Assembly: GCA_964016885.1 (NCBI GenBank)
Contig: OZ024742.1
Coordinates: 195,114,001-195,178,000 of the forward strand
Length of the DNA: 64,000 nt
Source: Eledone cirrhosa
Lineage: Eukaryota
Direction: 5' to 3'
Below, in pieces: positions 3,001-22,265 of this stretch. Below the pieces are notes generated by a model, which saw nothing but the letters and a program-made list of their open reading frames with translations, ran no database searches and had not been told where the DNA came from. Each line of letters starts with the position of its first letter. Position 1 is the first letter of the stretch. Both the position numbers and the translations under genes were made by a program.

Positions 3001-3162
3001 CCCCCTATTGGGGAATTTTTCATTGTTATTTTCATTGTTATTTTTGTTACATCCTCTGTTTTTGTTTTTTTACACGCAGAAATGCCCATTTGTACCGTCC
3101 TGCATTGTCCTGCACTGTCCTTAATGTCTACTTTATGTAAACCCTTGTGGTTAATAAAGAAA

Positions 3163-3164
<2 letters not shown>
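1..3164 (+). mobile_element. Tx1-like (L1 clade) non-LTR retrotransposon, copy 1 (5' part outside the window)
   Basis: ORF2 with end of APE domain, RT and C-terminal zinc finger; 3' UTR with AATAAA at 3153-3158 followed by an (ATT)n tail from 3165; closely similar to copies 2 and 3. Confidence 0.93.
20..2902 (+). CDS. LINE ORF2 (APE end, reverse transcriptase, zf-RVT), uninterrupted to its stop; true start upstream of the window
   Basis: Motifs YLDRVF..TDHK, GPGYWKLN, KSPGLDG, FRPITLLN, LDQSKAFDRV, VRQGCPLS, YADD, CPRC..ETVLHALVQC; 960 aa open. Confidence 0.92.
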   Translation: MDFPNVPMWTWTNRIGSSRSYLDRVFCREIDRSSIGCPQFKIVSYTDHKFVTCVLDLDRLHRRGPGYWKLNASLPARKAYRDRISELVKRALTGAIVNNKWWFALKRAIRIESIRFSKALAIEKNRAEGELVRKLDEALSKGIATDVLAAKLALDQFFNAKHEGCVVRARVRALRHEGTKAVQWARVAEARRGNKATIRSLVDHDGRMLLDPGQMCEAFQRHFAQLFGGSGGPGRGMDFSVYLDGLPRLSATEAKCCEKPITAAEVREAMTGCTRGKSPGLDGLPYELYVQIPDLFGGLLADVYCNWQQNGRIPSSVSRGAVALLRKDPNKGDNIDNFRPITLLNTEFKILAKVLAKRLALVVGGLVGEAQTCAIPDRSIHDNLHLMRYIVERVAREPGTGGSLINLDQSKAFDRVDHRYLAAVLRAAGFGPVFRGWIAAMHSDICSVVRVNGHLSEPFNIMRSVRQGCPLSSLLYVLTLEPLLHKLETMRGVPRELGCGRSVSAYADDVTVVVSNAKHIEAIGTTLREYEAVTGAMINQEKSVGLQLGTWRGRSMPSNSVVGRWTDGAVKLLGVWFGPDLQTDKNWDEVTSRVASLTQKWAERKLSLKGRAEVANAYIASVICYRLTVVPCPKPRLTALERLLFRFLWKGRAPMVRRSICCQHPLRGGLGMPWLMMRRHALRLRHLHLFLDGDQVWSPFARRVFPQLVSLTELQSWVKRRPRGSAWRLECLQALTALDQSGNVIGGNSTSAFYRGLVEGKSDDVLGETLGVDENQLANLFGRTFGPGPMDNFQKSLAWQCYRGALPVRDKLYRYGGAVSRACPRCAQGDETVLHALVQCPKIADLWVYVEHLLSRLGRIQLSSESIVRIAPPSSFSREGQAVFICLVAMAKEIVWWTRLKGLKTSTYLFGDALIDFFKFHLKRKIRVEKEVLSSQHFVERWVREARMARVNGPTLSIHL

Positions 3165-3204
<40 letters not shown>

Positions 3205-3211
3205 TATTATT
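3165..3211. repeat. (ATT)n tract shared by the Tx1 3' end (+) and the Dong-like 3' end (-)
   Basis: Read directly; both elements terminate on it from opposite sides. Confidence 0.95.
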
Positions 3212-4690
3212 GTTCTTTGAGTCTCAGTCATTGATGTTAGTTAACTGGAAAGTTTGTTGAAATGAATATCAAGCCACTACCTGCAGCCTCAGATATTCAG
3301 GACGTATCGGAGGGTTGTTGCAATTCCCAACAAGCATGCCTTTTGAAGTGTTCCAAAATGCGGGAAGGGCCCAATTTTCTTTAACCATCCCTGGAAACCT
3401 TTTGAGATAGTACCTAGTGCGCCTATGACAATCGGGACCACTTTGACCTCCTGGCAGTTCCAAATCCTTTTTACCTCCCACTTTAAGTCCTGGTATCGGT
3501 TCATGTTCTCCCTCTCCTTCTCTTGCACTCTCGTGTCGAATGGACAGGCCACATCCACAATCAGGCACGATCTTTTTTCCTTGTCCAAAACCACCAGGTC
3601 AGGTCTATTGTGTTCCAGTTTCTTGTCCGTCTGTATCCTAAAATCCCACAGCACCTTCACCTGATCGTTTTCTATCACCGACTCTGGCTTATGCTCATAC
3701 CACTTCTCAGAATGTGGTAAATTGTTTACTTTGCATAGGTGCCAGTGGATCACCCTGCCCATCACACCATGTCTCCAGCCTTTATAGTGAGTCTGGGCTA
3801 GGTGTTTACACTCGGATACAATATGAGCCACAATCTCCTCTCTCTCTCCACAGATCCTGCACAGTGGGCTAGCCTCCTCCTTGTAAATATGGCGTTTCAG
3901 CCACTTCGTTTTTAGGGCCTGCTCTTGCGTAGCCATTAGCATTCCTTCTGTAGCCTATTTAAGGTCTCCTCTTTTCAACCAGTTCCATGTCTGTGGATCT
4001 CTGAATTCAGTTTTCTCAAAGAAGGTACTATGAAGGGATTTTTCATGAAGGCTGCTCTTTCTCCTTGTTGTTTACTCCTTCAGTACAATTCTGAATATTG
4101 GCTCCCTACTATCAGTCACGTATTTGTGTAGGTTGTTTTCCTCCATCTGAACATAGTCCTCTATGCTGATAAGACCTCTTCCACCTTCAGATCTCCTTAA
4201 GTAGAGTCTATCGACATCACTCCTCTTGTGGAACATGTTGTAGATTGTCAATAGCTTCCTAGTCTTGCTATCAATTTCTTTTTGTTCAGCAACATTCCAT
4301 CTCAGAATTCCCGCACTGTACCTAATAATAGACACAGCTCGGTAATTTACTGCACTTATGGCATTCCTACTGTTCAGATGTGACTTTAATACGCCACACT
4401 CTCCGAATGTATTCAGATCTTATCAATTCCTTCATTTTTTTGTTCTTGATGTCATCAGCCTCCAGAACACCCAAATACTTGAATCCTTCTTCAGTGTCAA
4501 TTTCCTTTATCATCTCACCTGTTGGTACCTGGATTCCGTTGCTTCTGCTCAGTTCACCCCTCTTCATCACAAGGACTCCACACTTACTAATACCAAATTG
4601 CATACATATATCATTGCTGAAAATACGGACAGTGTCAACAAGCACATCCAACTCCTTCTCACTCTTCCCGAAGAGCTTAAGATCGTCCAT
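3212..4690 (-). mobile_element. R4/Dong-type RLE non-LTR retrotransposon, 5'-truncated and frameshifted (copy A)
   Basis: MDDLKLF, FKYLGV, LYLRRSEGGRGL, CRIC..H..EC zinc knuckle, RH motif, RPDLVVLD..IVDVACPFD..E..Y.DL RLE motif; ends in (AAT)n on the minus strand. Confidence 0.88.
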
Positions 4691-4693
4691 TAT

Positions 4694-21200: not shown

Positions 21201-21665
21201 CCGGGGAGCGTTGCCGGCTCGAGATAAGCTCTACAGGCACGGAAGTGCCGTCAGACGAGCCTGTCCAAGATGCGCGCAGAGCGACAAAACCGTTGTGCAC
21301 GCACTCGTTAAGTGTCCGAGCATTGCTGACTTGTGGAGCTATGTCGAACAGTTGCTGTCACGTGTAGGACTGATCCGGTTATCGACTGAGTCCATTGTGC
21401 AGATGATCTCGCCGAGGAAGGGCAGGATGTTTTCATCTGCCTGGTGGCCATGGCGAAAGAGATTGTGTGGTGGGCAAGGTTGAAAGGGTTAAAGACAGAT
21501 ACTTTCTTCTTCGGCGAATCCCTGATTAACTTTTTCAAGTTTCACTTGAAGAGGAAAATCAGGGTGGAGAGGCAAGTGCTGCCTTCTAGCAAGTTTGTTG
21601 AAAGGTGGGTGAATGTAGCGAGAATGGTCCGAGTGAACGGGACCGCTCTGAATATACGCCTGTAG
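18284..21665 (+). pseudogene. Tx1 copy 4 ORF2, frameshifted
   Basis: APE (IGSINARG, SET, VYAP, GDWN), RT (KSPGLDG, LDQSKAF, RQGCPLS, YADD) and CPRC finger spread over several frames. Confidence 0.9.
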
Positions 21666-21967
21666 TTTGAGAATTGGAAAAATTGAGAGAGGGCGCTTGC
21701 CCTGTTGGTCAGGGTGGCCGTGGTCTTTTGTGTCGTTTTCGCCACGAGTAACCCTCGGAGGTTTCCACCCTATTGGGGAATTTTTCATAGTTTCAATTTT
21801 CATTTTTATTGTTTATATATATATATGTTTCTATGTCTTTTTCTTTTTCTTTTCTTATATAAATAATAAAAATCTTTACACGAACAAAACCCACATCGTA
21901 CCGTTCTGTACCGTCCTGTGCCGTCTCTAATGTTTTTCTTGATGTCAGCCCTTGTGGCCAATAAAGA

Positions 21968-22030
<63 letters not shown>

Positions 22031-22069
22031 CATTATTGTTATCATAAACCATTATTGTCATCATCATGA

Positions 22070-22265
22070 GGGTGGTGGATTGGCAGTATCTGTAGAGGGT
22101 CTGACGCCATGCTTTGCAGCAAAGAGTTACGGCCCTTTACGTTCTGAGTTCAAATCCGACCGAGGTTAACTTTGCCTTCCATCCTTACGGGGTGGATAAA
22201 ATAAAGTACCAGTAATGCACTGGGTAATTGCTGGCCTTGTGCCAAAAGTAGAAACAATTATTATT
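22070..22265 (+). mobile_element. tRNA-derived SINE, (ATT)n-tailed family, full length
   Basis: A-box-like TGGCAGTATCTG, B-box GAGTTCAAATCC, 3' TGGCCTTGTGCCAAAAGTAGAAACA(ATT)n; lies just after the Tx1 copy 4 tail. Confidence 0.9.

Follow-up and report, generated by a model that had tools for sequence, protein, structure and literature searches.

Organization of the Tx1-type LINEs and the SINE in the window

The window analyzed here is a 64,000-nucleotide stretch of the genome of the octopus Eledone cirrhosa (GCA_964016885.1, contig OZ024742.1, positions 195,114,001 to 195,178,000, forward strand). Its first 22,260 nucleotides contain four head-to-tail copies of Tx1-type long interspersed elements (LINEs), with an ATT run linking each to the next element, together with R4-like elements and copies of a short interspersed element (SINE) that is their candidate partner. 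All four LINE copies lie on the plus strand. Copy 1 (1 to 3164), of subfamily A, is represented by its 3′ part, extends upstream of the window, and has an open 966-residue frame for open reading frame 2 (ORF2; 2 to 2902) with RVT_1 (1e-28) and zf-RVT (8.5e-8) domains. It terminates in AATAAA plus GAAATC (3153 to 3164), the AGAAA portion of which is common to the SINE, and is followed by an (ATT)n array (3165 to 3213) that is mostly target microsatellite and is adjoined by a minus-strand R4/Dong-like element. Copy 2 (7814 to 10027) is 5′ truncated and degenerate; its 5′ start is joined directly to the interior of an R4 fragment through a short microhomology, not to an ATT run. Copy 3 (10060 to 15921), full length and degenerate, has inserted into the ATT run that follows copy 2 and has a CCHC knuckle in ORF1. 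Copy 4 (15959 to 21968; 5′ boundary approximate), of subfamily B, is likewise full length and degenerate, lies in the ATT run of copy 3, and contains an Exo_endo_phos domain (4e-10). Tx1, SINE, and R4 elements form nested piles in the window because ATT targeting is common to them.

By Pfam, the LINE ORF2 comprises endonuclease, reverse transcriptase, and zf-RVT domains, and the nearest solved structures to the endonuclease domain are L1 endonucleases. ORF1 resembles CCHC/ZCCHC3-type clusters at 0.91 to 0.93, which serves as a lead only, and the ORF2 homologue with a named source is a hypothetical protein of Argonauta (68% identity). Judged by domain architecture and strict microsatellite targeting, the LINEs appear to fit the Tx1 clade of L1-like LINEs. 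The name Tx1 is presumptive, and the tree described below includes no named Tx1 sequence.

The full-length SINE (22069 to 22256, plus strand; 188 nt) ends in AGAAACA (22250 to 22256). Motifs that we take to be an A box (22081 to 22092) and a B box (22148 to 22156) were assigned by eye against the RNA polymerase III (Pol III) consensus. These box-like motifs lie 55 nt apart, also by eye; ARAGORN returned no match, and Rfam gave no tRNA match to the SINE. As for tRNA-derived SINEs, the element is short, noncoding, and present at very high copy number with target duplications: a 17-nt wild-type tail motif has 198,678 exact matches in the genome, and the copy number is about 200,000 or more. The window also holds a 5′-shortened copy (4694 to 4861, plus strand), located at an ATTAT site within an R4-like element and carrying a 3-bp stem with T-T at the fourth position, and two head-to-tail arrays, one on the plus strand with short ATT-rich stretches between copies (54078 to 55199) and one on the minus strand (44453 to 45244). 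No consensus for the named octopus SINEs OK, OR1, OR2, and tRNA-Deu was located in literature text or supplements. A second repeat family (L050, L120, L123, L124, and L046) has the SINE core followed by a different, longer tail, which suggests tail exchange.

A conserved 3′ hairpin with a C-N-N-G-U loop

The original prediction placed a hairpin near the 3′ end of each Tx1 copy and of the SINE. All five are present, at 3140 to 3152 (copy 1; 4-bp stem with a 5-nt loop at 3144 to 3148), 10003 to 10015 (copy 2), 15897 to 15909 (copy 3), 21948 to 21958 (copy 4; 3-bp stem), and 22232 to 22244 (SINE), and they precede the ATT run by 10 to 12 nt. The CTTGT pentamer by itself is not enriched in the window (129 observed versus 152 expected).

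To look beyond the window, 96 stretches of 10 kb were taken at round coordinates on 17 contigs (not randomized), representing 960 kb of the 3.0-Gb genome. They yielded 58 Tx1 ORF2 ends, duplicates included, and 158 matches to the SINE core, of which 153 reached the core end. Anchoring succeeded for 119 of these, and the spacing was standard in 113; the 34 left unanchored include other tails, deletions, and degraded copies. The loop, which had been described as an invariant CTTGT, has this sequence in just 11 of 23 Tx1 hairpins of the sample (8 of 9 among ATT-ending Tx1) and reads C-N-N-G-T in 22 of 23. Its consensus is C-N-N-G-U, not CUUGU. The closing pair is C-G, and loop positions C1 and G4 are kept in 27 of the 29 rows of a covariation table assembled from hand-picked ends (25 Tx1 and 4 SINE). 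A 6-nt loop occurs in 382 copies genome-wide, corresponding to an older Tx1 group, with an ORF2 match at 15 of 30 loci. The SINE had also been credited with a 4-bp stem and an ATT tail. In its 113 copies, the first three pairs are C-G (101), G-C (100), and G-C (106), but the fourth position is T-A in 54 and T-T in 53, which leaves a constant stem of 3 bp (22233 to 22243 in the full-length copy), and the ATT stretch has a median of 6 nt and is largely target duplication. No hairpin variant at a level of at least 5% was found among SINE contigs from four sequencing runs, two of which came from other organisms and were too thin to be usable (25 to 30 contigs). A check for expression turned up no RNA data set.

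Young Tx1 copies share 99% ORF2 identity, and open ORF2 frames are present. Their 3′ ends split into ATT-ending and ATCT-ending groups, and the hairpin before AATAAA-GAAA is kept in both. In a midpoint-rooted tree of 47 rows with several long branches, the ATCT-ending elements form one clade (support 100/100) beside an ATT subfamily (100/98), so placed that a target switch is probable. Members of the ATCT group (L085, L076, L079, L086, L091, L115, and L122) carry (ATCT)n at the end and in the flanks and retain this hairpin, although its loop varies more. At two other Tx1 3′ ends (L252 with L281; L288), (TTC)n stands in place of (ATT)n. More distant relatives were collected from metagenomes (80 loci, 25 to 41% identity); among the 64 examined, a hairpin precedes AATAAA in 3 and the pentaloop was seen in none, many of the frames being broken and the true ends uncertain. 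In one distant L1-like element on a metagenome contig (L216), AATAAA is immediately preceded by a hairpin of 4 bp whose loop is CTTG, the true end being uncertain here as well.

Both elements insert at ATT on the same strand

The Tx1-A 5′-end motif has 2,584 matches in the genome, and in all of the first 30 the full-length 5′ end abuts an in-phase (ATT)n. ATTAT is found in 60 of 91 SINE 5′ flanks, compared to 6 of 91 at 100 nt further upstream and a background of 5.1%, some of these flanks being tandem SINE arrays; the reverse motif ATAAT is found in 10 of 91. Duplications of at least 10 nt flank 31 of 68 SINE copies versus 4.1 for shuffled pairs, most of them being 8 to 18 nt long; in this search, the 3′ ATT was built into the definition of the SINE end and the 5′ copy was not required. 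The base preceding the insertion site is C or T in 88% of 34 cases. The ATT run is thus mostly target rather than tail.

Other LINEs behave differently. CR1-like copies also end in ATT, but no ATT run is found at the 5′ junction in any of nine, while R4a and R4c carry AAT on their own strand, i.e., ATT on the opposite one; therefore, neither fits as the SINE partner. The CR1-like family, which includes an open 957-residue frame, has a true (ATT)n tail with no ATT at its 5′ junctions (L130, L086, L096, L105, and L124). Within Tx1, subfamilies B/C and D have shorter 3′ runs (medians of about 5 and about 3 units, respectively), and some copies show short ATT duplications. Because of these two features, the older B, C, and D subfamilies would be likelier drivers of the SINE than the strictly array-bound subfamily A.

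The SINE and Tx1 share their 3′ end

When the ends are aligned in register with the 3′ terminus, the top SINE ends at offset 0 agree with Tx1-B ends in 18 of 26 positions and with Tx1-A ends in 14 to 15 of 26, compared to 9 to 13 of 26 at any offset for the ends of CR1, RTE, R4a, and R4c. The distance from the loop to the first ATT is 16 nt in SINE and Tx1 alike and closes with AGAAA plus two bases. AATAAA is kept in Tx1 alone, the SINE being variable at these positions. The earlier proposal that the SINE mimics structure rather than extended sequence is thus borne out only in part, as the terminal AGAAA(C/T) and the spacing are common to both elements as well. A profile built from 15 distinct Tx1 ends, from which the SINE-like Tx1 end of L014 was excluded, gives SINE ends a median score of +4.4 bits versus −36.9 ± 10.1 for 3,991 other sites preceding ATTAT. 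Eight of these other sites reach +4.4 bits, namely, seven SINE-like ends and one Tx1 end missed by the mask, and between 0 and 8 of 100,000 shuffles attain each profile score. Anchored at the end, the match therefore greatly exceeds chance.

These results bear on the possibility that the likeness arose by chance between A/T-rich ends and that the common ATT flanks stem from priming at microhomologies, of which any LINE would be capable. The motif is indeed short and CR1 also ends in ATT; however, the profile null and the shuffles, the identical register and spacing in SINE and Tx1, and the absence of ATT runs at CR1 5′ junctions largely refute this explanation, which we regard as very improbable. 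The pairing of the SINE with Tx1 that had been put forward as a candidate is backed by the shared end and, as independent support, by the strand-specific ATT targeting common to both. The SINE is likely a tRNA-type element mobilized in trans by ATT-type Tx1.

Several observations weigh against this pairing. The shared end spans just about 24 nt, and support from unanchored local alignments is modest: the best result is reached by 1 to 3 of 400 shuffles, with many pairs nonsignificant. ATCT-type Tx1 ends match the SINE about as well as ATT-type ends do. The arrays entered by Tx1-A have about 5 units or more, while at least 4 units are present in only 5 of 91 SINE flanks, the SINE inserting mostly at 1 to 2 units. 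The screen for other LINEs covered just 0.03% of the genome. Finally, although CR1, RTE, R4a, and R4c proved to be worse matches or to have the wrong target, an internal stretch of the R4b 3′ untranslated region (UTR), 51 nt from the R4b end, matches the SINE end equally well (15 to 16 of 26, with similar local scores).

The true partner might accordingly be another LINE, such as a low-copy L2, I/Nimb, or Vingi element unsampled in the 960 kb or an R4/Dong relative, the likeness to Tx1 then being convergence or the relic of an earlier partnership. The R4b match and the shorter targets of the SINE relative to those of Tx1-A would be in line with this scenario. Yet the R4b match lies inside a long stem of its own, away from the terminus, and R4b ends in (ATAC)n, which is not favored in SINE flanks (15 of 91, against a background of 13%); R4a and R4c have ATT on the opposite strand. 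In addition, the motif-bearing sites outside masked SINEs are SINE-like fragments or Tx1 alone, and some Tx1 B/C/D copies are also found at short ATT sites. We consider a different partner unlikely.

The R4b stretch, which resembles the last 24 nt of the SINE, is found in the window at 35104 to 35190 and 37422 to 37510 (plus strand) and in L083, L086, and L114, within the long stem and before the (ATAC)n end; it may be due to chance or be a captured SINE end. Three further resemblances were also considered. Homology between the pyrimidine tract of the long SINE form and Tx1 UTRs is suggestive only. A SINE body fused to a long Tx1-like tail gave no match to one narrow pattern, which is not proof of absence. 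A search for a Tx1 subfamily with the stem of the SINE itself gave 4 matches, every one a SINE copy.

Sparse compensatory changes in the stem

In the 29-row table, 89% of the stem cells are paired versus 78.4% after shuffling, and slid controls give 26 to 48%. Changes on both sides occur in 16 cells versus 5.7 in shuffled tables, and none of 500 shuffles was as high; the rows are hand-picked and related, so this result is not a probability. Read by eye on the tree, the compensatory change seems to be real but sparse, with about four events: one at pair 2 (in the SINE), one or two at pair 3, and two at pair 4. The second pair differs between SINE and Tx1 by a single C-G to G-C swap that keeps pairing. 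Genome-wide, the third pair is A-T in 10,131 matches, G-C in 6,669 (counted with a narrower pattern covering ATT types only), and A-C in 664, G-T being outside the count. Three stem sequences had been said to keep pairing around the same loop; this is borne out among Tx1 subfamilies and by the one SINE-Tx1 swap, but not inside the SINE family, and the loop itself is not fixed.

A role for the stem has to be set against the following results. At pair 2 of the SINE, the two single mismatches number 927 and 922, and the compensated double change is found in 11 copies versus 4.3 expected under independence. These 11 copies are dispersed among the long and the short form of the SINE, and double changes are made more numerous by older copies, so that no compensated SINE subfamily is indicated, and 12 inspected SINE copies with C-C look like scattered decay. 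Pair 4 is unpaired in 12 of the 29 rows. Of 15 copies with the A-C mismatch, seven belong to a single ATCT-type family in which the remaining members show CpG at this place, and they may represent either CpG decay or a real broken-stem subfamily. Folding of the hairpin is weak (z scores of −1.4 to +0.3): it is part of the best fold in 6 of 6 Tx1 windows and in 1 of 3 SINE windows, an alternative fold winning in the other two.

Such results would suit an explanation in which Tx1 mobilizes the SINE through primary sequence, i.e., the loop bases, AGAAA, and AUU-target pairing, with the stem being incidental or serving Tx1 3′-end processing by AATAAA. The marginal folding energy and competing SINE fold, the absence of covariation within the SINE, the invariant and hence uninformative closing pair, and the possible broken-stem family all speak for it. 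Conversely, the second pair of the SINE differs from that of Tx1 on both sides and still pairs, two-sided changes are seen at pairs 3 and 4 when Tx1 subfamilies are compared, and the SINE has lost AATAAA but kept the hairpin. We judge mobilization through primary sequence improbable, and we marginally favor the hairpin being a handle read by the Tx1 ORF2 protein (ORF2p).

Proposed model for SINE mobilization

We lean toward a model in which the SINE borrows the Tx1 reverse transcriptase by means of the hairpin and the ATT targets. The SINE RNA would be made by Pol III and the Tx1 RNA by Pol II, AATAAA being kept just in Tx1. ORF2p would then hold the RNA by the hairpin, for whose loop a C1-G4 pair and a flipped-out U are predicted, and the 16-nt spacer would set the register. 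At Y|ATTAT, the AAT strand would be cut by the Tx1 endonuclease, and the terminal AUU units of the RNA would pair with the freed primer, leading to target-primed reverse transcription. Nicking, AUU-primer pairing, and ORF2p binding are proposed because of target-primed reverse transcription and the L2 precedent, in which stems are exchangeable and loops are not (PMC4176376). A CUNG/CNGG(N)-like fold is suggested because C1 and G4 are fixed. This fold, known from hepatitis B virus stem-loop alpha and the Smaug element (PMC2275152), has features that the pentaloop could share, with C1, G4, and a potentially flipped-out fifth base; its closing pair is G-C, whereas ours is C-G, position 3 is mostly U here, and the fold is predicted in our case. 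More tentatively, and with somewhat less than even confidence, we propose an animal Tx1 lineage with strict recognition of RNA shape, in which ORF2p would read a 3-bp hairpin with a C-N-N-G-U loop, always 16 nt away from the repeat that pairs with the target. When the target switched between (ATT)n and (ATCT)n, the hairpin would have been kept. The SINE, which would account for much of the SINE expansion in octopuses, would owe its success to having copied so small a handle, with one base pair inverted.

Comparison with known LINE-SINE pairs

The octopus pair resembles eel UnaL2/UnaSINE1 and zebrafish ZfL2-1/ZfL2-2, which have a common 3′ end with a stem-loop before short tandem repeats, an interchangeable stem, and a conserved loop (PMC4176376, PMC3747384). 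However, those pairs belong to the L2 clade and are assay tested, whereas the octopus LINE is of L1/Tx1 type and known from sequence alone; the octopus stem is 3 to 4 bp, about 24 nt are common, and the repeat is largely target. Crocodilian SINEU was likewise assigned to a Tx1 element, Tx1-Mar, by target preference, with looser targeting in some SINE families and tandem insertions (Kojima 2015, PMC4494074). SINEU differs in having U1/U2 heads, poly(A) tails, and a Mariner target, and that study found no LINE with the SINEU-1 3′ end, while the octopus SINE has a putative tRNA-type head and a shared 3′ end. According to the same paper, the Kibi (TC)n, Koshi (TTC)n, and crocodilian (TTCC)n families of Tx1 also insert sequence specifically into simple repeats; in the octopus, these repeats are (ATT)n or, for a nested group of elements, (ATCT)n. 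The closest parallels for the hairpin are maize/sorghum ZmSINE2/3 with LINE1-1_ZM and Chlamydomonas SINEX-3_CR with L1-1_CR, where an L1-clade 3′ hairpin shows compensatory stem changes and a conserved loop and 3′ flank, in the SINEs too (Ohshima 2012/2013, PMC3472496, PMC3747384). These are plant and algal L1 elements sharing 50 to 80 nt, with no microsatellite target described, in contrast to an animal target-specific Tx1.

In the accessible parts of two articles, the table of SINE/LINE pairs has no Tx1 partner, and its L1-clade cases are those of maize/sorghum and Chlamydomonas (PMC3747384, PMC3472496). Papers on bivalve SINEs give CR1, CR1-Zenon, L2, and Nimb as partners (PMC11481361, PMC4824008, PMC4758252), and the portions consulted of octopus repeat papers give SINE and L1-Tx1 abundance, unpaired (PMC13282606, PMC8967140); nothing on SINE-Tx1 pairing by a shared tail appears in the available text of PMC5786205 and PMC5804259. 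No literature report of this SINE-Tx1 pair was found in a search that did not extend to Repbase, SINEBase, or the octopus SINE paper of 1994, so an earlier description is possible. The octopus elements likely represent stringent LINE-SINE pairing in the L1/Tx1 branch, shared-tail pairing not having been found described for Tx1 in the sources available. In one model, L1-type LINEs began as strict 3′-end readers and later relaxed to poly(A), on the basis of the plant and algal cases (PMC3472496, PMC3747384). Strict shape recognition in the octopus, if true, would add a case from animals to the stringent readers of the L1/Tx1 branch, a state proposed to be ancestral to poly(A)-only human L1, and the pairing would identify what drove a major expansion of SINEs in octopuses. 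With its minimal hairpin, young open-frame copies, and a parasite SINE, such an animal Tx1 would make the strict-to-relaxed model directly testable.

Other repeats in the ATT arrays

R4/Dong-like elements also insert into these ATT/AAT arrays, but oriented the other way, in the window at 3214 to 4680 and 7259 to 7816 (minus strand) and elsewhere in L084, L104, L053, and L064. The window also contains a 390-bp direct repeat with 94% identity (4883 to 5272 and 6872 to 7260) around about 1.6 kb; it resembles a long terminal repeat and adjoins the ATT end of a SINE.

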